A stretch of 64,000 nucleotides of DNA from Malacoraja senta. Its lineage: Eukaryota. The notes under the pieces are model-generated. The model was not told the origin of the DNA. It did no database searches and saw only the letters and a program-made list of their open reading frames with translations. The stretch spans positions 19,160,001-19,224,000 of the forward strand of contig CM075988.1 in NCBI GenBank assembly GCA_038087875.1, in the 5' to 3' direction. The position numbers and the translations under genes are program-made. This document shows positions 2,180 through 51,174 of this stretch, one piece after another. Each line of letters begins with the position of its first letter. Position 1 is the first letter of the stretch.

Positions 2180-2445
2180 TACCTTCAGCATGATGAGCGT
2201 TTGATGACAGTGGGCCTGTACTCGATGGAGTTTAGAAGAATGAGGGGGGACCTCATTGAAACTTACCGAATAGTGAAAGGCCTGGATTGAGTGGATGTGA
2301 AGAGGATGTTTCCACTACTGGGAGAGTCCAGGACAAGAAGCCATAGCTTCAGAATAAAACATATAGAAAGGAGGTGAGGAGGAATTTCTTTAGGGTGGTC
2401 ATTCTGTAGAATTCATTGCCAGTGGATATTTTTAAGGTGGAGATT
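2180..2445 (+). mobile_element. CR1 3' fragment, left part (DIRS target)
   Basis: GLYSxEFRRMRGDLIETY-type sequence; continues at 7212. Confidence 0.85.
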
Positions 2446-2671
2446 AGTAAGATTAAACGAGAACTTACCAGTTTGAAGTTTGATCTTTATTTTATGAGGA
2501 GTTACGTTGGTGATTACGTGAAGAACCCCGTCAGGGCGCATGCGCATCAATCTTCAAAGCAGCGGTATGAAATCACAGACAACACCATAATTGAAGTAAC
2601 ATATTAAGATGATCAACATGAGAACTACCATTATGACCTTTTTTCTATGAGAGAGGGTTGGGCGTGGCAGG

Positions 2672-2783
2672 CACGTAATCACCAACGTAACTCCTCATAA
2701 AATAAAGATCAAACTTCAAACTGGTAAGTTCTCGTTTAATCTTACTATTTTACTTCGGAGTCACGTGAGTGACTACATGAAGA
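2672..2783. repeat. Internal complementary region (ICR) of DIRS copy 1
   Basis: 2672-2746 is the reverse complement of 2446-2520; 2747-2783 is the reverse complement of about 7175-7211; junction ...cttact|attttacttcgg... Confidence 0.95.
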
Positions 2784-2995
2784 TTTTAAAGCTCTGTGAT
2801 TTTTATGCCGCAGATCAAAATCCCGGCTTCTCACTGCATCGATTGACTCCGAGTATCATCAATAATGCTGTAAACATGACATTGCATATCATGCAAAAAT
2901 AAACAGTTTTATTTTTTGGTCATAAAACAACCAATAAACCCTCTTAATGTAGGGGCAACAAACGAAACAGAATGAAACAGTATTGAAAACAGACT

Positions 2996-3966
2996 TTAAA
3001 CAATAGCAACAGCACTCAATATTGAGTTGGCAAACAGCCCTCCATCGGCAATCGGCCGATGGTAGTATTGCTGAAAACACAAGTTCATTTTTCCAAACTG
3101 CAGCTTTTAATATATGGTCGATGGGAACGTCCATCGCCCTGGCCGCAGATGTTGCTACTGCACTAGTGGAATGAGATGTAAACACATAAATGTTAATTCC
3201 TGCCTGAACCAACTCTTGCTTTAACCACCTTGAGATAGTCTGAACTGCCACTCATTTATGTTGGCTTCTTGTAACTGACAAATAATCCTGTTTCTTCTTG
3301 TCTTAAAGCCCTTGTGGCTTCAATGTAATGTAACAAATGTGTCGTTATACATAAACATGGTGCTGTAGGATATGCTGAGAACACAATCTTAAATCCTGTC
3401 ACACCTGGGCTGCTTTGTTTGAGCAGGTCAGAAATATAAACAGAACATTCTCTGTATTCACTTCCATTCTCTCGAACTGAAGTTTTTGCAAAGTCTGCAC
3501 TCTCTGTACTGATACCAATGCCATTAGCATAGCCAATTTCATGGTTAATTTTAACAGTTATAGACGTGACAGGGACCCAATGACGAAGTATGTTAAGAAC
3601 AACGCTTACCTCGCAAATTACCATATACGTAGGCTTAGGCGGTTTGGAATTAAAGATTCCTTTTATCAACCTGGATATGAGAGGGTGAGAACCTATACTT
3701 TGTGTCCGTGTACCTATTACAAGATATGCCGACAAAACACTTCTAGCTGTATTGATAGCACTATAGCTATGACCCTCATCATAATAAAGTGTAGATAAAA
3801 CTCTAACACATTTTCAATAACTACAGTATCATATTGAATATTCTTTTGAACACAATATTGTCCCCATTTTTTTTTCTTTTTTCGTAAGTCATATACTGCT
3901 TTTGAGTACTCTTTCTCCAGGCCGCAGTGAGTATATCCACCGTTGGCCTAGAAAGTCCTCGACCAA
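2996..3966 (-). pseudogene. DIRS tyrosine recombinase, frameshifted (copy 1)
   Basis: Fragments IGSHPLISRLIKGIFNSKPPKP, DLLKQSSPG, ISRWLK, FTSHSTSA (HxxR Arg lost), ILKAAVW; colinear with copy 2. Confidence 0.9.
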
Positions 3967-3978
3967 TGTAAGGCATTC

Positions 3979-5680
3979 TTAAAACCTGCAAATTAACAAA
4001 TCCATACGATCACATAACGGATGAACTTAACGCGTGACTGGATGCTCCAGCAAATTCCTACTGTTTGGAATCAGCAAAAAGAGGTTGGATCGCTATCTGT
4101 AACATCAAAGGGAACCATGGTTGAATCGGGCAATTTGGTATCACCAAAACCCCTGAAGCGGCATCCTGCTTGATTTTCTCAAACACCGACCTATGAGGCA
4201 GAATGGTGGGAAAATGTACACAAACATATCATCCCAATTTAGTGAAAAAGCATCAATTGCCACTGCCCCTGGATCTGGTGCCTATGAAACATATTTTGGC
4301 CTTCCATATAGAAGTACTATGTTCTTGGACCCATCCTGGTTCCATATCCACTCTGTGTTATGACGGAATTTTCGTGAGCTGCCATCTGGTACTACATTAA
4401 GTTTCCCTGGCAGATAGATTTCTCCAATCCAAATCTCTCTATCCCTACTCCAGGTCCAATTGTATTTGCCAACCTGTCACATGATAACGATTTGATTCCA
4501 CCCATGTGATTCATATCAGCAACTGCTGTAGAGTTGTCTATTTTGCACTGCACATGCAAACTAGTTTAGTTAGTGCCATAAGCCTTGAGTCCATAAAATA
4601 CTCTTGGTTAATTCCCCATGTATGCAGAAGCAATGTTCATCTGTCTCCACAGCTGGATCTTGTATCAGTAGCACCCTACCCAAGTGCTCTGACATCTCTC
4701 TGCAAATCATGGAAGCTTGGTCCAATAACACTTTGGAACTACTAGTGGACACATGCTGAATCCACCATTGCACATCAACAACAGCCTCTATTGATAGAAG
4801 CATAGGTCTATTATAATGACCCCAATGTATCCTCAATGCTTGTTCCTTTGACCTTTGTAATTGTAGATAATAAAGTGGCCATATTGAACTGCTGGGAATG
4901 CTGCCAGCCATTACCACAGCAGACTTGTGACCTGGTTAATTGAAGGCTGTGTGTCAGCAATTAACTTGATACAGCTCTTAATTAGCTCTACCCTTTTTTG
5001 CCTGGGCAAGGTCACAATGATGTTGATTAAGTCCATTGTGAACCCAACTAGTCAATTTGTGTCACAGGTATAAATTTAGATTTCTCTGGATAGTTTATAA
5101 CGCCCAATTAAAAAATGTTTTTTACCAACTGCCACTGATGCTTCAGCTGTTTCCTTTGATTGTCCTACAATCAAGATATTATCTAGTTAAGCCATGAGCA
5201 CATGCCCTTGACTTCTCATCATGCCTAGAATAGGTTTTAACAACTTTGTAATCCTTCTAGGAGCTGAAGACAAACCATTAGGCAGTGGATTGTATTGGCA
5301 TCTTCCATCCTGCAAATGAACAGACACTGAATCCGCATCTTTAAGATCTCCTTGACAAACGTTTCCATCTTAAAATGTCTATACCGTACAAAAGGGTTAA
5401 GACTATTCAGGTCCGTATAATTCTGCATCCCCCCATCCTTTTTTTGTCTGGGAAAGATATTGGACACAAACTGATGGCTTTGGTAAACTGCCTTAGCAAT
5501 TACATCTTTATTACATAAGCTTGCAAGTTCCAGCTGAACTTCCAATTGTTCAGTGATACTGAAGTCAAACTCCTTTTTGGAACATGTTGCATGGGTAAAT
5601 CAGAATTTGCATTAAGCTTTATTCGATGCCCTTGAATAACCTTCAGTATAAACATATCTGAGGTAAACATTTAATTGTGT
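3979..5680 (-). pseudogene. DIRS RT-RNaseH-methyltransferase, heavily disrupted (copy 1)
   Basis: FVSNIFPRQKKDG, LNPFVRYRHFKMET, A*LDNIL at the YxDD site, DVQWW; several deletions relative to copy 2. Confidence 0.9.
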
Positions 5681-7030
5681 CACATTAGATCTGTCTACAT
5701 GAGAACCAGACCCTCTTACCTCCTTACCACCTGGCATTCTTCCCCGGCCTTGAGCTGGATATCTCACCTCCCTGGCGGTGCTACAGCTGAACGCCAACTG
5801 CGCTGCATCGTAGCTGGACTCGTCCCTTGCCCGGACCAGTCTGCTCCCTTATAGGGATACTCCCGCTTTGGTGAATATGTGGCTGCCGTCTTAGCCTCCT
5901 CCTCCAGCTCGCCAAACAGCTGTGCCGGTTGCACTGTGCCAGGCTGGGAGAGTGAAGCATATTTAGCATTGATGGTTGGTCTAATCGCAGTCTTGCGGAG
6001 ACAGTTGATCTCAAAGTGGGCACTCCACAATAGCACCTTTTGTTGTAATTTGTCATGGCCTCTCCATCCACCATCCTGGCAAAGCTCGTTATACCAGATG
6101 CCAGCAACTTTAAAAATATGCTGGAGCTTCACATGCTCCTGGGCTCTCATTAGTATGCCCATCTTGCCCCAATTCTTCCTGTTCCCAACAGGAACTTTTA
6201 ACAGTCCACAGTTGATTGGGGCTTCATGTTTCGTTACTGTCTCATCCATTGTCAGCTCCTGTAGCTGATGTGAGACTTGGTAATTTATGCTGGTGGCAAG
6301 TTCCTCACCCAGAGGCTCACCAGCGTCCGATGACATGGTAAACCGTGCTGCACATGGTGTCAGCTCTGGCAGCTGCCTGCCCTCCCTTTGGAAGTCGTCG
6401 GACTCGGGGTCAGAGCGTATCTGCCCTTCTGCACTCACCTCTTGCAAAGAGGGTGCTTTCAAGCAGGCCTCTACTAGGCACTGCCAGCGGAGCCTTCCCT
6501 AAGGCTTCCCGCCTGCACAACTCCTCCTGGAGTGTGGCTTTGTGAAGCAGGCCTCTCCTAGGCACTGCCAGCGGAGCCTTCCCTATGGCTTCCCGCCTGC
6601 ACTACTCCTCCTGGAGTATGGCTTTGTGAAGCAGGCCTCTACTAGGCACTGCCAGCGGAGCCTTCTCTATGGCTTCCCGCCTGCACTACTCCTCCTGGAG
6701 CGTCTCTGTGGAGCAGCCCCTGTATGAGCTGCTCCTTTTGGATAACCGCTGGGGAACGGTATCCTGTCCCCGACGGGACTCTCCTGGCCCGACTCTGCCA
6801 AGTCTATAGCCCTGACAGACTTGGCTTATGCCGACCACCCGACTGGCATTGGCTGTGTACCCGGCTGGGCACTTTGCCAAGTCTGTCGCCGCACCGCTAC
6901 CGGCTTGCGACTCCCCCGAGGTGACAGGCTGCCTTTCAGAGACTGCGCTCCCGCAACGCTCTCTCTCCTTGTCGGCAGCAGACCTGCACCTTTTCCTTGT
7001 TCCTGTATGTGGGGGAAAACACAGAAACAA
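5681..7030 (-). pseudogene. DIRS gag, frameshifted (copy 1)
   Basis: ORF pieces 6686-7030, 5764-6462 and 5781-6107 match the 443-aa gag ORF of copy 2. Confidence 0.85.
6461..6712. repeat. Three 84-bp tandem repeats inside DIRS copy 1 gag
   Basis: Unit aagcaggcctct...ctttgtg starts at 6461, 6545 and 6629; single unit in copy 2 (about 20926-21010). Confidence 0.92.
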
Positions 7031-7211
7031 TGTCTTTACTTTTCTCTAACTCCTCCAAAGTCTCCCCGACTTTGGTGGAGCTGTAATTACTCACCTGCAG
7101 CAGGAGCTCCGTCCTCCTGCTGCCGTTCGCACCAATGCGTCAGATGTAATGACGCGCATGCGCCCTGATGGGGTTCTTCACGTAGTCACTCACGTGACTC
7201 CGAAGTAAAAT

Positions 7212-16092: not shown

Positions 16093-17243
16093 GTACAGTG
16101 CAGGAACAGGCTCTTCGGCCCAAATTGTGCGTTTAGGATACCAACATCAACTCTTATCAACCTGCACATCATCCTTATCCTTCCATTCCCTGTATATCTA
16201 TGGCCATTTCCAAAAGTCACTCAAATGCCACTATCGTATCTGCCTCAACCACTAACCCTGGCAGCTCGTTCCAGGCACCCGCCCCCTGATGTGTAAAAGA
16301 TAGGATTGGGGCGAGTGTACCTGCCAGCGCATAATTCCATGCATCTGCAATTCCATGCACCTGATGCAGGATCAGCATATCCTGCAATCCGCAAATATTT
16401 AGGAAAATAAAATTCAACCTTTTTCCTTTGGCACCTCTCTCGCAGATAACAATAAGTATATTTTCCGCTGGAGAAGTCAAAGGCTGGAGAAGGCAAGTGA
16501 TGTACTTTATCACGGAGAAGATCTTTAAATCTATTGCACATTATTGAAATTATTCTAGATTATTATTTGATAAACATCTGCATGTAATTTTTCACGGTTG
16601 TTCAGCGGAACGTCTCCCGCTGATTTCAGTGGAAGTTTAAATAACTTTCCGTGAGGTTTGTTTAAATCTAACATGGAAGGAGTATGGGTGAGAATAGTAG
16701 GATTAAACGAGAACTTACCAGTTTGAAGTTTGATCTTTATTTTATGAGGAGTTACGTTGGTGATTACGTGAAGAAGACCCGTCAGGGCGCATGCGCGTCA
16801 ATCTTCAAAGCAGTGGTATGAAATCACAGACAACACAATAATTGAAGTAACATATTAAGATGAGGAACATGAGAACTACCATTACGACCTTTTTTTCTAT
16901 GAGAGAGGGTTGGGCGTGGCGGGCACGTAATCACCAACGTATCTCCTCATAAAATAAAGATCAAACTTCAAACTGGTAAGTTCTCGTTTAATCTTACTAT
17001 TTTACTTCGGAGTCACGTGAGTGACTACGTGAAGATTTCAAAGCTCTGTGATTTTATGCCGCAGATCAAAATCCCGGCTTCTCACTGCATCGATTGACTC
17101 TGAGTATAATCAATAATGCTGTAAACATGACACTGAATATCATGCAAAAAAACAGTTATATTTTTGGTCACAAAACAAATAATAAACCACTCTTAATTTA
17201 GGGCAACTAACGAAACAGAATTAAACAGTATTGAAAACAGAAT

Positions 17244-18203
17244 TTAAACAATAGCAACAGCACTCAATATTGAGTTGGTAAACAGCCCTCCATCGTCAAT
17301 CGGCCGATGGTAGTATTGCTGAAACACAAGTTCATTTTGCCACCCTGCGGCTTTTAATATATGGTCGATGGGAACGTCCATCGCCCTGGCCGCCGATGTT
17401 GCTGCTGCCCTAGTGGAATGAGATGTAAACACATCCGTGTTAATTCCTGCCTGAACCAACACTTGCTTTAACCACCTTGAGAGTCTGAACTGCCACTCTT
17501 TTATGTGGCTTCTTGTATGACAAATAATCCTGTTTCTTCATGTCTTAAAGCCCTTGTGGCTACATGTAATGTAACCAATGTGTCCTTATAGATAAACATG
17601 GATCTGTAGGATATGCTGAGAACACAATCTTAAATCCTGTCACACCTGGCCTGCTTTGTTTGAGCAGGTCATAAATATAAAACATAACATTCTCTGTAGT
17701 CACTTCCATTCTATCTAACTGAAGTGTTTGCAAAGTCTGCACTCTCTGTGCTGAAACCAATGCCATTAGCATAGCCAACTTTCATGGTTAATTTTGACAA
17801 AGTCATAGACGTGACAGGGACCCAATGACGAAGCATGTTAAGAACAACACTTACATCCCAGATAACCATATACCTAGGCTTAGGCGGTTTGGAATTAAAG
17901 ATTCCTTTCATCAACCTAGATACGAGAGGGTGAGAACCTATACTTTGTGTCCGTGTACCTATTACAAGATATGCGGACAAAGCACTTCTAGCTGTATTGA
18001 TAGCACTATAGCTAAGACCCTCATCATAATAAAGTGTGGATAAAAACTCTAACACATTTTCAATAACTACAGTATCATATTGAATATTCTTTCCAACACA
18101 ATATTGTTCCCATTTTTTTACATGTTATATACTGCTGTTGAGTACTCTTTCTCCAGGCTGCAGTGAGCATATCCACCGTTCGCCTAGAAAGTCCTCGACC
18201 CAT
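17244..18203 (-). pseudogene. DIRS tyrosine recombinase (copy 2), about four frameshifts
   Basis: ATG at 18203; LSYSAINTARSALS, HPLVSRLMKG, SAQRVQTL (Arg), HSTR, AAGW, FQQYY: R-H-R-W-Y catalytic set present. Confidence 0.93.
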
Positions 18204-18214
18204 GTAAGGCCTTC

Positions 18215-20078
18215 TTAAAACCTGCAAATTAACAGATCAATACGATCACATAACGGATGAACTTCACGCGTTACCGGATGCTCCAGCAAATTCCTACTCC
18301 TTGGAATCAGCAAAGGAGGTTGGATCGCTATCTGTAACATCAAAGGGAACCATGGTTGAGTTGGCCAATTTGGTATCACCAAAACCCCTGAAGCGGCATC
18401 CTGCTTGATTATTTATTTATTTATTTATTTTTTCAAACACCGACCTATGAGGCAGAATGATGGGAAAATGTACACAAACATATCATCCCAATTTAGTGAA
18501 AAAGCATCAATTGCCACTGCCCCTGGATCTGGTTCCCATGAAACATATTTTGGCTGCTGATGGTTAAGCCTGGATGCAAACAAATCGATATCTGAGATTC
18601 CATAGAGAAGTACTATATTCTTGAACACATCCTGGTTCAACATCCACTCTGTATTACCAAGGAATTTTCGTGACCTGGCATCTGCTACTACATTAAGTTT
18701 CCCTGGCAGATAGATAGCTGAAATCCAAATATCTCTATCCATACACCAGGTCCAAATTTGTCACATGATAACGATTTGATTCCACCCATGTGATTAATAT
18801 AAGCAACTGCTGTAGTGTTGTCTATTTGGCACTGCACATGCAAGCTAGTTTTGTTAGTGCAATAAGCCTTGAGTCCATAAAATACTCCTAAAACCTCTAA
18901 ATGGTTAATTCCCCATGTTTGCAGAAGCAATGTCCATCTGCCTCCACAGCTGGATCTCGTATCAGTAGCACCCCACCCAAGTGCACTGACATCTGTCTGC
19001 AAAATCATGGAAGCTTGGTCCAATAACACTTTGGAACAACTAGTGGACACATGCTGAATCCACCATTGTACATCAGCAACAGCCTCTACTGATAGAAGCA
19101 TAGGCCTATTATAATGACCCAAATGTATCAACAGTGCTTGTTCCTTTGACCTTTGTAATTGTTGATAATAAAGTGGCCACTATTGAACTGCTGGAAATGC
19201 TGCCACCAATTTCCCAAGCAGACTCGCCACCTGGCTAATTGAAGGCTGTGTGTCAGCAATTAACTTGATACAGCTCTCAATTAGCTCTACCCTTTTTTGC
19301 CTCGGCAAGGTCACAATCATGTTGATTGAGTCTATTGTGAAACCCAAATAGTCAATTTTTGTCACAGGTGTTAATTTAGATTTCTCTGGATGATTTATGA
19401 AGCCCAATCTTTGAAAGGTGGTTTTAACAACTGCCACTGATGCTTCAGCTGTTTCCTTTGATTGTCCTACAATCAAGATATTATCTAGTTAAGCCATGAG
19501 CACATACCCTTGACTTCTCATCATGCCAAGAATAGGTTTTAACAACTTTGTAATCACTCTAGGAGCTGAAGACAAACCATTAGGCAGAGCATTGTATTGC
19601 CATAATTGCCCCATCCAGCTGAATTTTAAATATCTTCTATCCTGCAAATGAACAGACACGGAATAATCTGCATCTTTAAGATCTATATTTGCCATATAGC
19701 ATCCTCTAGAAACAAGTTGCTTAGCCTTCACAAACGTTTCCATCTTAAAATGTCTATACCGTACAAAAGGGTTAAGACTATTCAGGTCCACTATAATTCT
19801 GCATCGCCCATCCTTTTTTGGTCTGGGAAAGATATTGGACACAAACTGTTGGCTTTGGTAAACTGCCTTAGCAATTACACCTTTATTACATAAGCTTGCA
19901 AGTTCCACCTGAACTTCCAATTGTTCAGTGATACTGAAGTCAAACTACTTTTTGGAACGTGTTGCATGGGTAAATCAGAATTTGCATTAAGCTCTATTCG
20001 AAACCCTTCAATAACCTTCAGTATAAACATATCTGAGGTAATTTGTTTCCATTCCTCTAAGAACAGATGTAATTCCAA
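18215..20078 (-). pseudogene. DIRS reverse transcriptase - RNase H - Dam-like methyltransferase (copy 2)
   Basis: EEWKQITSD, PKKDGRCRIIVDL, IDLKDAD, LPNGLSSAPRV, *LDN at YxDD; RH TDVSALGWG, INHLE, DNTTAVAYINHMGG, NVVAD; MT DIDLFAS, YIFPSF, PNWPTQPWFP; stops and frameshifts. Confidence 0.93.
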
Positions 20079-21339
20079 ATTTTAATTGTATCACATTAGA
20101 TCTGTCTACATGAGAACCAGACCCACTTACCTCCTTACCACCTGGCATTCTTCCCCGGCCTCGAGGTGGATATCTCACCTTCCCTGGCGCTGCTACAGCC
20201 GAACGCCAACTGCGCTGCATCGTAGCTCGACTCGTCCCTTGCCCGGACCAGTCTCCTCGCTTATAGGGATACTTCTGCTTTGGTTGATATGTGGCTGCTG
20301 GCTGCTTAATCAAGCCCACCGTCTTGGCCTCCTCCTCCAGCTCCTTCACCTGCTTTGCGAAATCCTCGCCAAACAGTAGATTTGCCGGTTGCACTGTGCC
20401 AGGCTGGCAGAGTGAAGCATATTTAGGATTGATGGTTGGTCTAATCGCAGTTTTGCGGAGGCAGTTGATCTCAAAGTGGGCACTCCACAATAGCGCCAGC
20501 ACCTCTTGTTGTATTTTCGTCATGGCCTCTCCATCCACCATCCTGGCAAAGGTAGTTATGCCAGATGCCAGCAACTTTAAAATATGCTGGAGCTTCACCT
20601 CCTGGGCTCTCATTTGTATGCCCATCTGGCCCCAAATCATCCTGTTCACAACAGGAACTTTCAACAGGCCACAGTTGATTGGGGCTTCATGCTTCCTTAC
20701 TGTCTCATCCATTGTCAGCTCTTGTAGCTGATGTGAGACTTGGTAATTTATGCTGGTGGCAAGTTCCTCACCCAGAGGCTCACCAGCGTCCGACGACATG
20801 GCAAACCGTGCTGCACACGGTGTCAGCTCTGGCACCTGCCTGCCCTCCCTTTGGAAGTCGTCGTCGGAATCAGGGTCAGAGCTTATCTGCCCTTCTGCAC
20901 TAACCTCTTGAAAGAGGGTGCTTTCAAGCAGGCCTCTACCAGGCACTGCCGGCGGAGCCTTCCCCACGGCCTCCCGCCCACACAACTCCTCCTGGAGTGT
21001 GGCTTTGTGGAGCAGCCCCTGTATGAGCTGCTCCATTGTGGATAACCACTGGGGCACGGTATCCTGTCCCGGACGGGACTCTTCCTGGCCCGACTCTGCC
21101 GAGTCAATGGGCCTGACAGACTTGGCTTTTGCCTTCCGCCCGACTGGCGTTGGCTGTGTACCCGGCTGGGCACTCGGGAGCGCCAAGTCTGTTGCCGCAC
21201 CGCTACCGGCTTGCGACTCCCCAGAGGTGACAGGCTGCCTTTCAGAGACTGCACTCCCGCAGCTCTCTCTCCCCTTGTCCGTAGCACGCCTGCACCTTGT
21301 TGATTTTTCCCTTGTTCCTGTATCGTGGGGACAAAACAC
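20008..21339 (-). CDS. DIRS gag-like ORF1 (443 aa open; true start and end uncertain)
   Basis: Long open frame at the element 5' end with typical DIRS ORF1 blocks PINCGLLKVPVVNRMIW, LRKTAIRPTINPKYASLC, LLFGEDF and a basic C-terminus. Confidence 0.8.
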   Translation of the reverse strand: MFCPHDTGTREKSTRCRRATDKGRESCGSAVSERQPVTSGESQAGSGAATDLALPSAQPGTQPTPVGRKAKAKSVRPIDSAESGQEESRPGQDTVPQWLSTMEQLIQGLLHKATLQEELCGREAVGKAPPAVPGRGLLESTLFQEVSAEGQISSDPDSDDDFQREGRQVPELTPCAARFAMSSDAGEPLGEELATSINYQVSHQLQELTMDETVRKHEAPINCGLLKVPVVNRMIWGQMGIQMRAQEVKLQHILKLLASGITTFARMVDGEAMTKIQQEVLALLWSAHFEINCLRKTAIRPTINPKYASLCQPGTVQPANLLFGEDFAKQVKELEEEAKTVGLIKQPAATYQPKQKYPYKRGDWSGQGTSRATMQRSWRSAVAAPGKVRYPPRGRGRMPGGKEVSGSGSHVDRSNVIQLKFGITSVLRGMETNYLRYVYTEGY

Positions 21340-21869
21340 AGCAACAATTTTCTCTTTTTACTAACTCCTCCAAAGTCTCCCCGACTTTGGTGGAGCTGTT
21401 AAACTACTCACCTGCAGGAGGAGCTCCTCTTCCTGCTGCCGTGACTCCAAAGTAAAATTGAATTGAGGTTGGCCTCAACAGAATGAGGAGAGTTCAGATT
21501 CGGGAACAAAGTTAGAATTCAAGAGCAGAGAACGATATCTGTACAGCACCAGTCACGTGAGAGTATATTAATAGCAAGGTAGTGGGCCTTAATGACTACC
21601 GTTCAGTGACTCGACATCCACTATCATGAAGTGAATCGCTAGACTGGTTATGGCACACATTAACTCCAGCCTCCCAGCTAGACTTGACCCACTGTAGTTT
21701 GTTTACTGCCACAACAGTTCAACAGAAGACGCTACACTCCTGGTCCAACACTCTTTTCTGGAACATCTAGATAACAAGGGCACCTAGGTCAGACTCCTAT
21801 TTATTAACTATAGCCACCTTCAACACATAACCCCATTCAAGCTCATCTACAAACTCCTGGACGTTGGTG

Positions 21870-22835
21870 GGGACTCCAGCACCCACAAGTCCTTTTGCAC
21901 CTCCGATTTCTCAATCCTCTCCCCATTTAGAAAATAGTCTACGCCTTTATTCATACTATCGGAATGCATGACTCCACACTTTGCCATGCTGTATTCCATC
22001 TGCCACTTCTTGGCCCACTCTCCCAACCTGTCCAAGTCCTTCTACAGAGCCCCTAATTTCCCCACACTGCTTGACGCTCCACCCATCTTTTCTTACCTTC
22101 CGCAAACTTGGCCACATAGTCTTCAATTCCCTCATCAAACTCATCCATATACAACGTGAAGAGCAGTGGCCCCATCACCGACCTCCTCGGACCCGCGGCC
22201 TGAATAAGACACTCTGTTGTCATTACGTGTGGTTCTGCAGCAGACAATCAGAACACAATGGGGTGACACAACGTCACGGAGAAGTGATGAGGAAAATCAA
22301 GTGGTGAGGAGCCATGCCACATCTCTTGACTCGCACTGTAGTGTTGCAGATTATACCTTTCTTTCAGGATAATGGAGACTATGTGATGTGTTATCAGGAA
22401 ATGATAAGAAAAGAATAACCAAAGTAGCGGGCAGCTGAATCTCTGTGGGCTTGCGGAAGGGATTTGATTACGTTTGTCTGGGGGATTGTTACCAAGAGAT
22501 GACACGCATTGGAAATGAAGGGATGATGTGACCTGATTCTGAAACTGGTTTGAGTGCCGGAGGACGGAACACAGGGTTGGCCATTATGTGCTAGCCATTC
22601 ACATTTCCACCATCCTCCTACTGGTGTTCAGGGGTGCCTTGGTGCCAAGCAACTGGTCAAGAGCCAAGTCAAAAGAGTTTAATTGGCATATGTACTTGCA
22701 AAAGAACAATGCCATTCTTACTTGCTGCAGCTTAACAGGCCTGTTAATGCAACAACACACCAATAGTCACAGGCACCCAACCAGAAAAAGCCCCCTTTAT
22801 TCCCACTCTTTGCCTTCTGCCTGCAATCCAATAAC
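21870..22835 (-). mobile_element. CR1 RT fragment split by a duplicated segment
   Basis: KFA..., DRLGEWAKKWQMEY peptides; resumes at about 22764 (tagtcacagg). Confidence 0.8.
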
Positions 22836-24165
22836 AGGGGAAAGTTGTACACGTTTCACTGGTGTTCTGGTGAGTTTCATTGTTTGTAGAACTCATTTTC
22901 ACCTAGCCCACAGCTAACAATAGACTGTTTCCTTGATCATCATTACTTTTTTGCATATCTTTCTGTTTTTTTGTTCTATCACTCCATATCACTCACCATC
23001 TATATATCTAGTTTTCCTTTCCCCTGACTCGCAGTCTGAAGAAGGGTCTCGATCCGAAACGTCACCCTTGTCCCGTTGAGTTACTCCAGCATTTTGTGTC
23101 TATCTGACAGGGGAAAGAAGGTGTCCAGCGGTGTGCTCTTTCAAGCTTCTGTATCTTCTGCCCGACGGAAGCAGGGAGAGGAAGGAATGATCAGTGCGGG
23201 ACGAGTCTTTGATTACGTTTGCAGCTTTCCAGAGGCAGCATGAAGTGTAGATGGAGTCAATGATTGGGAATCTGGTCCATGTGAAGGACTGGGCTACATC
23301 CACAATTCTCTGCATGGTCAGGGGCAGAGTTGTTCCCAAACCAAGGTGTGAGGTGTCGTATTGTGTGTTACTGTGCAATATTCCCAATATAATGGCGGCA
23401 GCTGGTTTAATTCCACTGCTGCACTTCGATACACTCACTGCATCTGTGGTTTGGAAGATTAGAATGCACAACCACATTGTGCCACACACTTAGAGTAATG
23501 GCTGGCAGCATTGTTCCAGCCCCCAGCCCCTCCCCACTTAACCGATAAATACCAGGGGTGGACAGTGGGGTGGTCACTGGAGTGGCTCCTCAGCCACACA
23601 GCCTGAATCAGACACTCTGTTGTCATTACGTGTGGTTCCGCAGCAGACAATCAAAACACAATGGGGTGACACAACATCAGTGAGAAGTGATGAGGAAAAT
23701 CAAGCGGTGAGGAGCCACGTCACATCTCTTGACTCGCACTGTAGTGTCGCAAATTATACCTTTCTTTCAGGATAATGGGGACTATGTGATGTGTTATCAG
23801 GAAATGATGAGAAAAGAATAACCAAAGTAGCGGGCAGCTGAATCTCTGTGGGCCTGCGGAAGGGATTTGATTACGTTTGTTACCAAGAGATGACACGCAT
23901 TGGAAATGAAGGGATGATGTGACCTGGTTATGAAACTGGTTTGAGTGTCGGAGGACGGAACACAGGGTTGGCCATTATCTGCTAGCCATTCACATTTCCA
24001 CCATCCTCCTACTGGTGTTCAGGGGTGCCTTGGTGCCAAGCAACTGGTCAAGAGCCAAGTCACGAGTGTTTAATTGGCAACAGTCACGAGTGTACTGGCA
24101 ACAGAACAATGAAATTCTTACTTGCTGTAGCTTAACAGGCCTGTTAATGCAACAACACACCAATA
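22198..24165. repeat. Direct duplication of about 565 bp (22198-22765 and 23601-24165)
   Basis: Colinear near-identical sequence from gcctgaat to acaccaata. Confidence 0.95.
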
Positions 24166-34702: not shown

Positions 34703-35333
34703 AGAGAAATATAGATGGTGATATAGAGAAATAGAAGAAATGAATTAAAATAAATGGGCTTCTTGTGCACCAGGTTTATTTGTAAGATTTGAATATTAAC
34801 GATTAGCTCTCTTTCAGACATGAATATTCATGCACAAATTAACTTCCCCCAAATAACAAGAAATTGGCAATGGCACTCGAGATTTCTCTGGACAATACCT
34901 GTTGTTATTTCAATTTCATACCTAACCCAGGATTAACTACGGCAGAAGAAATTGCAGATGCTGTTGCCCTGACCATAGAACATGGAACTGTCATCATTAT
35001 CTGTACCGAACATGATGCCAAGTTAAACATGACATCCTGACTTCAATGTTCACGCCCTGAACACTGAAGTCAAGCGTACTATATATCTTTTTATACTCTA
35101 TTCACATGCGTTGCCACTTTCAAGATTCAAGATTCAGATTCAAGAGAGTTTGTCATGTGTCCCAGATAGGACAATGAAATTCTTGCTTTGCTTCAACACA
35201 ACAGAATATAGAAGGCATGAATACAGAACAGATCAGTGTGTCCATATACCATTGTATAAATATATACACACATGAATAAATAAAACAGATAAAGTGCAAA
35301 TAAACAGATAATGGGCTATTAATGTTCAGAGTT

Positions 35334-35533
35334 NNNNNNNNNNNNNNNNNNNNNNNNNNNNNNNNNNNNNNNNNNNNNNNNNNNNNNNNNNNNNNNNNNN
35401 NNNNNNNNNNNNNNNNNNNNNNNNNNNNNNNNNNNNNNNNNNNNNNNNNNNNNNNNNNNNNNNNNNNNNNNNNNNNNNNNNNNNNNNNNNNNNNNNNNNN
35501 NNNNNNNNNNNNNNNNNNNNNNNNNNNNNNNNN
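35334..35533. other. Assembly gap (200 N)
   Basis: Run of N. Confidence 0.99.
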
Positions 35534-48074: not shown

Positions 48075-48376
48075 AATGGTTGGGGGGGGGACTCAAATAG
48101 AGAATGCTATTAGACAGTGTGTGAGGCAGGAGGCAAAGAAGGAAAGCACTCAGACCCAACATGTAGGGGGAAAGAAGAAAACAATAATAAACAGAGAATA
48201 AGAGGTGGTGGGGTTCTTAAATGGGTGAGCAGAGAAACAGAGGGGTGTAAAATGCAGGCAGAAGCAATAGGTAGCAAGGTGAAAAGTAAAAGTGGCAGGC
48301 AGACAAATCAAAACGGGCCACTTTTCAACATAATTGTATAAGGGGTAAGAGCGTTGTAAAAACAAGCCTGAAGGCT

Positions 48377-51174
48377 TTGTGTCTCAATGCAAGGAGCATT
48401 CGTAATAAGGTGGATGAGTTGAACGTGCAGATAGCAATTAATGATTATGATATAGTTGGGATCACGGAGACATGGCTCCAGGGTGACCAAGGCTGGGAGC
48501 TGAACATCCAGGGATATTCAATATTCAGGAGGGATAGAAAGAAAGGAAAAGGAGGTGGGGTAGCGTTGCTGGTTAGAGAGGAGATTAACGCAGTGGGAAG
48601 GAAGGACATTAGCTTGGAGGATGTGGAATCGGTATGGGTAGAGCTGCAAAACACTAAGGGGCAGAAAACGCTGGTGGGTGTTGTGTACAGGCCACCTAGC
48701 AGTAGTAGTGAAGTCGGGGATGGCATCAAACAGGAAATTAGAAATGCGTGCAACAAAGGCAAAACAGTTATAATGGGTGACTTCAATCTACATATAGATT
48801 GGGTGAATCAAATTGGCAGGGGTGCTGAGGAAGAGGATTTCTTGGAATGTATGCGGGATAGTTATCTAAACCAACATGTAGAGGAACCAACGAGAGAGCA
48901 GGCTATTCTAGACTGGGTATTGAGTAATGAGGAAGGGTTAGTTAGCAGTCTTGTTGTGCGTGCCCCCTTGGGCAAGAGTGACCATAATATGGTTGAGTTC
49001 TTCATTAGGATGGAGAGTGACATTGTTAATTCAGAAACAACGGTTCTGAACTTAAAGAAAGGTAACTTTGAGGGTATGAGACGTGAATTGGCCAAGATTT
49101 ACTGGCAATTAGTTCTAAAAGGGTTGACGGTGGATATGCAATGGAAGGCATTTAAAGACTGCATGGATGAACTACAAAAAATGTTCATCCCAGTTTGGCA
49201 AAAGAATAAATCAGGGAAGGTAGTGCATCCGTGGATAACAAGGGAAATCAGGGATAGTATCAAAGCAACAGATGATGCGTACAAATTAGCCAGAAAAAAC
49301 AGCATACCAGAGGACTGGGAGAAATTCAGAGACCAGCAGAGGAGGACAAAGGGCTTAATTAGGAAAGGGAAAATAGATTCTGAAAGGAAACTGGCAGGGA
49401 ACATAAAAACTGACTGCAAAAGTTTTTATAGATATGTGAAGAGAAAGAGATTAGTTAAAACAAATGTAGGTCCCTTGCAGTCAGAAACAGGTGAATTGAT
49501 CATGGGGAACAAGGATATGGCGGATCAATTGAATAACTACTTTGGTTCCGTCTTCACTAAGGAAGACATAAATAATCTGCCGGAAATAGCAGGGGGCCGC
49601 AGGTCAAAGGAGATGGAGGAACTGAGTGAAATCCAGGTTAGTCGGGAAGTGGTGTTGGGTAAATTGAATGGATTAAAGGCCGATAAATCACCAGGGCCAG
49701 ATAGGCTGCATCCCAGAGTACTTAAGGAAGTAGCTGCAGAAATAGTGGATGCATTAGTGACAATTTTTCAAAACTCTTTAGATTCTGGAGTAGTTCCTGA
49801 GGATTGGAGGGTAGCAAACGTAACCCCACTTTTTAAGAAGGGAGGGAGAGAGAAAACGGGGAATTACAGACCAGTTAGTCTAACATCGGTAGTGGGGAAA
49901 CTGCTAGAGTCAGTTATTAAAGATGGGATAGCAGCACATTTGGAAAGTGGTGAAATCATTGGACAAAGTCAGCATGGATTTACGAAAGGTAAATCGTGTC
50001 TGACGAATCTTATAGAATTTTTCGAGGATGTAACTAGTAGAGTGGATAGGGGAGAACCAGTGGATGTGTTGTATCTTGACTTTCTGAAGGCTTTCGACAA
50101 GGTACCACATAAGAGATTAGGATACAAACTTAAATCACACAGTATTGGGGGTTCAGTATTGATGTGGATAGAGAACTGGCTGGCAAACAGGAAGCAAAGA
50201 GTAGGAGTAAACGGGTCCTTTTCACAATGGCAGGCAGTGACTAGTGGGGTACCGCAAGGCTCAGTGCTGGGACCCCAGCTATTTACAATTTATATTAATG
50301 AACTGGATGAGGGAATTGAAAGCAACATCTCCAAGTTTGCGGATGACACTAAGCTGGGGGGCAGTGTTAGCTGTGAGGAGGATGCTAGGAGACTGCAAGG
50401 TGACTTGGATAGGCTGGGTGAGTGGGCAAATGTTTGGCAGATGCAGTATAATGTGGATAAATGTGAGGTTATCCACTTTGGTGGCAAAAACGGGAAGGCA
50501 GACTATTATCTAAATGGTGGCCGATTAGGAAATGGGGAGATGCAGCGAGACCTGGGTGTCATGGTACACCAGTCATTGAAAGTAGGCATGCAGGTGCAGC
50601 AGGCAGTGAAGAAAGTGAATGGTATGTTGGCCTTCATAGCAAGAGGATTTGAGGATAGGAGCAGGGAGGTTCTACTGCAGTTGTACAGGGTCTTGGTGAG
50701 ACCACACCTGGAGTATTGCGTACAGTTTTGGTCTCCAAATCTGAGGAAGGACATTATACCATAGAGGGAGTGCAGAGAAGGTTCACCAGACTGATTCCTG
50801 GGATGTCAGGACTTTCATATGAAGAAAGACTGGATAGACTTGGCTTATACTCGCTAGAATTTAGGAGATTGAGAGGGGATCTTATAGAAACGTACAAAAT
50901 TCTTATGGGGTTCGACAGGCTAGATGCAGGAAGATTGTTCCCGATGTTGGGGAAGTCCAGGACAAGGGGTCACAGCTTAAGGATAAGGGGGAAATCCTTT
51001 AAGACCGAGATGAGGAAAAACTTTTTCACACAGAGAGTGGTGAATCTCTGGAACTCTCTGCCACAGAGGGTAGTTGAGGCCAGTTCATTGGCTATATTTA
51101 AGAGGGAGTTAGATGTGGCCCTTGTGGCTAAAGGGATCAGGGGGTATGAAGAGAAGGCAGGTACGGGATACTGA
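48377..51174 (+). pseudogene. CR1 ORF2 (APE endonuclease + RT) with one frameshift near 50755
   Basis: NARS, ITETW, GDFN, SDH; NYRPVSL, QHGF, KAFDKV, GVPQGSVLGP, FADD; 795-aa ORF continues in the 50716-51174 frame. Confidence 0.95.

Follow-up and report, generated by a model that had tools for sequence, protein, structure and literature searches.

Two DIRS1-like elements in the window

The window, a stretch of 64,000 nucleotides from Malacoraja senta (contig CM075988.1, positions 19,160,001 to 19,224,000; examined at its full length, as part of a genome of 1.94 Gb), contains two copies of a DIRS1-like retrotransposon, both on the minus strand. In this element a splice donor near the end of gag and a splice acceptor ahead of the tyrosine recombinase (YR) bracket the block that encodes reverse transcriptase (RT), a putative RNase H and methyltransferase. 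As judged from sequence, splicing between the two sites very probably gives a Gag-YR fusion protein.

Copy 2 (16693..21458) ends on the right in a terminus of 78 nt (16693..16770), which is 97% complementary to one half (16924-17001) of an internal complementary region (ICR, 16924..17017) whose halves join near 17000. Of the left terminus only a remnant (21440..21458) complementary to the other half (16999-17017) is left, about 70 nt of the repeat being absent. Copy 1 (2445..7211) has inverted terminal repeats at 7150-7201 and 2498-2549 that match at 88%, and an ICR at 2672-2783 with halves corresponding to both ends (2672-2747 with 2445-2520, 100%; 2747-2783 with 7175-7211, 97%). GTAAG motifs resembling a donor are found in the right terminus (16718) and the ICR (16997) of copy 2; their conservation in 11 of 12 groups of copies probably reflects their place in the terminal repeats.

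Pfam families were assigned in a natural copy elsewhere in the genome; the RT fragments of copy 2 match only weakly. The natural copy matches RVT_1 (E 2.5e-23), Phage_integrase (E 4.4e-09), Phage_int_SAM_4 (E 8.4e-05) and, weaker than the curated cut-off, Dam (E 0.00095); the FPPF motif of the methyltransferase is also present. The same scan gave no match to a protease or DDE integrase family and none to RNase H, though the RNase H region aligns with relatives and carries what we take to be RNase H motifs. With its inverted termini, ICR, RVT_1, weak Dam and Phage_integrase matches the element is a DIRS1-like retrotransposon. The closest relative found for its gag is from the little skate.

Both copies are dead: the YR frame is broken, a stop stands at the tyrosine of the YxDD motif, and the start ATG of gag is absent. 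The splicing claim therefore concerns the family and not these two copies. They belong to one subfamily (L001-L039 and both window copies) with common lesions in pol and no gag ATG, which seems to have spread in trans while retaining the whole intron. The YxDD tyrosine codon (19491-19489) is a stop in 31 of the 38 nearest copies and in 11 of 41 in a wider set, and the stop reaches distant subfamilies (L041, L059). TAA, TAG, TAT and TAC are all found at this codon, which lies in a near-palindromic context, and the stop is a recurrent change at a single base.

Frames and predicted splice sites of copy 2

The gag-like frame of copy 2 (20131..21357, open from stop to stop) reaches the donor after 1227 nt or 409 codons, in phase 0, so that gag neither stops before the donor nor is out of frame with it. 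The 5' leader contains a predicted short intron of 94 nt (21318..21411, GTGAGT...ACAG; 7094-7003 in copy 1), which ends 5-8 nt ahead of the gag ATG of sister subfamilies. The leader donor is present in a distant family too. The main donor (20125..20133) has its exon end at 20131 and reads GTAAGT from 20130, exactly as first located. The acceptor (18221..18248) is TTGATCTGTTAATTTGCAG, with its last base at 18222, 1909 nt from the donor. It lies inside the final codons of pol, is in phase 0 of YR and may include a branch site, presumably a TGAY about 25 nt upstream. Its pyrimidine tract is indeed modest, as had been cautioned, while GT...AG ends and a donor consensus are present. Copy 1 keeps both sites (donor 5719, acceptor 3986) with an interval of 1734 nt.

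The predicted intron (18222..20130) holds the RT, RNase H and methyltransferase block, which in copy 2 is broken by stops at 19491 and 19182 and by frame breaks. The original prediction had proposed that a single repair of 2 nt would join gag and RT in this copy. This proved wrong, as gag and the RT core already share a frame (offset 0 mod 3); what does not fit is the N-terminal stretch of RT in between, which two breaks, near 20075 and near 19945, put out of frame. Both breaks are common to the nearest copies. The one-base difference between the two window copies upstream of the donor, from which a doubt about gag continuity had been drawn, is private to copy 1; 40 of 41 copies match copy 2.

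Downstream of the acceptor lies the YR frame (17244..18221), broken in copy 2; in unbroken natural copies it measures 327 codons from the acceptor to its end. An ATG at 18203, 18 nt past the acceptor, had been taken as the YR start, a reading that we reject. It is CTG or TTG in older subfamilies, and this lack of conservation, which the original prediction did not include any more than the death of both window copies or the frameshift described below, strengthens the case for splicing.

Natural copies of the family

The natural copies were compared individually. Breaks in pol are common to the 39 copies closest to copy 2. Forty copies chosen through RT (76-96% nucleotide identity) include uninterrupted gag-RT-RNase H-methyltransferase frames of 1055, 1028 and 1020 residues, with a separate YR frame of 332 codons downstream. 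A single Gag-Pol frame, as first proposed for unspliced RNA, is thus seen directly. Among 81 copies the donor AG|GTA.G is conserved in 77 and a YAG acceptor in 70; the other eleven either are without the acceptor region (nine) or read CAA there (two). The residues around the donor vary across subfamilies (E or Q before, V-S, V-C or V-G after), and the AG, the GTA and the G at +5 stay constant. Each of the 35 RT-chosen copies in which the region is present has its YR frame closed five codons upstream of the acceptor, without a Met in between.

Over 12 groups of copies the donor ranks first of 124 shared GT columns and the acceptor first of 175 shared AG columns on rough score tables. The frame match between the two sites had been given a one-in-three chance of arising by accident; the ranking of both sites across the whole element points to more than chance.

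Other families of the same genome

Beyond this family, 20 loci of about nine other families (pol 55-70% amino acid identity) were compared. The donor is present in all 17 loci that could be anchored, in phase 0 of pol in 16, the remaining one having a private deletion. The acceptor is found in 19 of the 20 loci, each time entering the YR N-terminus in phase 0. Both sites are thus conserved in other families. In one family the acceptor reads TAG, which is silent in pol and harmless to splicing, and in the YR frame is a stop directly ahead of conserved YR residues. The first YR Met of this family is at codon 40 in three of four loci, and in another family it is at codon 88 in four of eight.

These loci bear on the possibility that YR has an AUG start of its own and is translated from a separate RNA, either by an internal start or by splicing the leader donor (21411) to the same acceptor, so that no Gag fusion arises. 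The leader donor is strong, most copies of the window lineage retain a Met at codon 18 past the acceptor, and an early YR Met occurs in 27 of 46 distant relatives (see below). However, that Met is Val or Ile in the other families, where the first Met can be as late as codon 40 or 88, and 12 of the 46 relatives have no early YR Met at all, with no in-frame Met until over 100 nt downstream of the conserved YR start. Over codons 1-17 the YR sequence is shared with distant YRs and its changes are synonymous, and the upstream ATG of the leader is inconstant in phase and absent in one family. A separate start would also leave the phase-0 donor ahead of RT unexplained. We regard it as very improbable.

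Distant relatives and a movable acceptor

Relatives from metagenomes (the best 80 of 471 matches, pol 38-53% identity, median YR identity 42%) were reduced to 55 clusters with one member each, 51 with an RT anchor and 46 with a YR anchor. No relative was found in the viral contigs searched. Within the 240 nt before RT, 49 of the 51 relatives have their best donor in phase 0 of pol, compared with 96 of 299 control windows; the median score is 5.3 against 0.6. The Val codon at the donor is GTA in 35 of 49, compared with 382 of 1509.

When a fixed window is searched, the best acceptor of 37 of 46 relatives falls in phase 0 of YR, compared with 78 of 227 controls. This window was chosen with the data in view: a narrow one (-60..+45) showed no phase bias in the distant relatives (16, 9 and 21 for phases 0, 1 and 2), and the bias appeared once the window was widened to -260 after the openings of the YR frames had been seen. 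One well-supported clade has the acceptor at the position of the window element. In most other relatives it lies about 216 nt further upstream, in the F-P-P-F-S codons, and in a few at about -80 or -45. Whichever position is used, the YR frame opens at it or just ahead of it. Where the YR frame is open back to FPPF, the codon after this motif begins with AG in 27 of 29 elements, compared with 1 of 14 others. On a tree of 30 relatives with unbroken YR and eight copies from this genome, the acceptor class changed at least three times on well-supported branches; one relative of the 'mid' class (L131) is probably damaged. A CAG in the terminal L-S-G codons (+8) was considered as the acceptor and rejected, being the best site in the fixed window in only 1 of 46 relatives; it stays possible as a minor site.

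The phase-matched pair, kept in about nine further families and in dozens of distant relatives, supports the originally proposed spliced Gag-YR product. Both sites lie inside coding sequence, and constraint on the protein might instead have left them as unused by-products, the residues concerned being E-V in the linker and C-R or F-S in the methyltransferase. The protein sequence itself makes the FPPF codons rich in pyrimidines, further conserved CAG codons resembling acceptors occur at 18569, 18996 and 17409, and intron-less copies were not found (see below). Against this, the donor persists while the linker varies in its residues and in its length (33-132 nt to the RT anchor). Synonymous choice leans to the splice consensus, not only in the GTA but also in the Ser after FPPF, which is AGY in 28 of 31 compared with 504 of 2016 in pol, and elements whose acceptor has moved no longer have the AG after FPPF. 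By-products of this kind are extremely unlikely as the explanation.

A predicted frameshift into pol and a test for one into YR

Most distant relatives have gag in another frame than pol, stopping just ahead of the donor. A strict slippery heptamer is found in the gag-pol overlap of 40 of 49 relatives, and 27 of 48 such sites read T TTT TTA. The density of slippery sites is 48 in 1962 codons from gag to pol, compared with a background of 81 in 20662. Likewise, F-L occurs within the last 90 residues of 82 of 93 full-size gag proteins, compared with 15 in a control stretch. The heptamer is thus predicted to shift ribosomes by -1 from gag into pol in most relatives. In this genome the gag of two basal families likewise ends just ahead of the donor, with a slippery heptamer. 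Both types of gag-pol arrangement, frameshift and in-frame, are found in the genome and among the relatives (L097, L098 versus L068, L056, L083; L131, L136), and the in-frame form looks derived in this genome.

A -1 ribosomal frameshift at the end of pol could also give a Gag-Pol-YR protein: in the window element and in relatives YR overlaps the end of pol and is in its -1 frame. According to Poulter and Butler 2015, as quoted in PMC13003380, frameshifting probably gives access to the YR of Ngaro elements. The test that detects the gag-pol signal in 40 of 49 relatives, however, finds heptamers in the pol-YR overlap only at the background level: 7 of 46 elements have one, and there are 10 sites in 3476 codons. 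The pol-YR overlap is only 5-8 codons in this genome, one family has a stop in the YR frame two to three codons ahead of the pol stop, and the conserved donor would be left unexplained. A pol-YR frameshift is highly unlikely.

Searches for spliced forms and gene models

Several points weigh against a spliced Gag-YR fusion. A genome search with the junction probe gave no match to an intron-less copy, compared with 2120 matches to the unspliced donor. In Dictyostelium, marker RNA of DIRS-1 can be copied after splicing, and RT works in trans (PMC7192593); the absence of intron-less copies thus needs an extra assumption, either that the intron holds a signal acting in cis or that the RNA pools are separate. 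Such pools are reported for BARE (PMC3735527). In the lineage with gag and pol fused in frame we found no route to Gag alone. Among the relatives nine of 46 have no phase-0 best acceptor, two of 51 no phase-0 best donor, and 27 of 46 have a Met at or ahead of the conserved YR start. The relatives share ancestry and are not independent, so that the phase counts are descriptive only. The first 39 natural copies were chosen by likeness around the donor itself, and the splice-site matrices are rough.

The predicted junction was not among the 15 of 63 joints listed from contigs of two sequencing runs of unspecified kind, which makes the result uninformative. None of 38 matches to long YR proteins is a clean gag-YR fusion of the window element's lineage, and a search for gag proteins near its length gave one match. 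One of 150 gag relatives, the RefSeq sea urchin model XP_071502116.1, consists of gag, a linker and YR without RT, and its match to YR begins at the acceptor position. Two little skate isoform models (P0040 and P0189; RefSeq LOC129705380), compared with L084, exit the DIRS gag at the donor position. They continue in sequence that is not part of the element, possibly as a chimeric host transcript. These gene models are hints only, as a predictor may pick strong sites unaided.

Other features of the window

The gag of copy 1 holds three tandem copies of 84 nt (6446-6721). Outside the two elements there is a local duplication of about 500 nt (22183-22688 and 23586-24079, 94-97% alike and 1.4 kb apart), and an assembly gap (a run of N) lies at about 35330-35530. 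A long frame at 48290-51174, with many similar fragments, resembles in its motifs ORF2 of a long interspersed element of the CR1/L2 type. Many short interspersed repeats are scattered over the window.

A proposed expression scheme and its relation to known systems

Several features are plain from the sequences: the sites and their phases, the single Gag-Pol frame of natural copies, and the closed, Met-poor 5' end of YR. Equally plain are the coupling, in relatives, between the acceptor position and the point where YR opens, and the placing of slippery sites ahead of the donor but not of YR. We propose that unspliced RNA, the form that would be replicated, gives Gag-Pol. From part of the RNA the host spliceosome would take out the pol block, yielding Gag-YR, and Gag would bring YR into the particle. 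Gag alone would be the product of most ribosomes in frameshift-type elements. Most relatives and the two basal families would thus make three products, Gag, Gag-Pol and Gag-YR, while in the window lineage gag is fused in frame instead. It is likely that a wide animal group of DIRS1-like elements obtains three proteins from one RNA by frameshift and splice in series, with Gag-YR made after the same shift on RNA lacking pol.

The element resembles known DIRS1-like elements, as far as the available text of PMC3266345, PMC9210276 and PMC3783388 describes them, in its inverted terminal repeats, ICR, gag, block of RT and methyltransferase with a putative RNase H, and YR in an overlapping frame. The same texts describe three separate open reading frames, whereas here gag and pol form one frame and YR is apparently spliced on; a search of them for 'splic' and 'intron' gave no match. 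Natural splicing of DIRS elements is likewise not mentioned in the accessible text of these three papers or of PMC6681497, PMC4157794, PMC5633606, PMC9341512, PMC4495291, PMC9940879 and bioRxiv 10.64898/2026.05.21.726589. Our literature search found no report of it; the main reviews were outside the reach of this search, and a prior mention is possible. The element class itself is known.

Spliced gag RNA has been described for the plant Ty1/copia elements EVD (PMC5580714) and BARE (PMC3735527). As in these elements, host splicing would yield two proteins from one retrotransposon unit, and as in BARE the spliced RNA need not belong to the replicated pool. Their splicing, however, truncates the polyprotein to Gag alone, whereas here it would swap enzyme blocks.

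Retroviruses express env, and foamy viruses pol, from spliced RNA, and U UUU UUA is a known site of -1 frameshifting. The scheme shares with retroviruses an unspliced genome RNA together with a spliced RNA for a downstream gene, and the slippery heptamer of the relatives is of the same type. In contrast to retroviruses, the spliced product would keep all of Gag and carry the integration enzyme, and frameshift and splice would act in series.

How DIRS elements express a downstream YR that overlaps pol and often has no start has so far only been guessed at, as frameshifting in the one statement we found. If the proposed scheme is true, RT and the integration enzyme would be alternative tails on Gag, and a splice-swapped enzyme tail would join the known ways in which retroelements set protein ratios. 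It would explain why the YR frame starts differently between families, the long overlaps of pol and YR simply spanning the distance from the acceptor, which can move, to the core of the recombinase. It would also predict the real N-terminus of the recombinase, which is needed for showing recombinase activity, and it predicts exact bases that can be tested in existing RNA-seq data. Finally, host transcripts would acquire a strong splice donor from DIRS insertions, a consequence suggested by the two little skate gene models.

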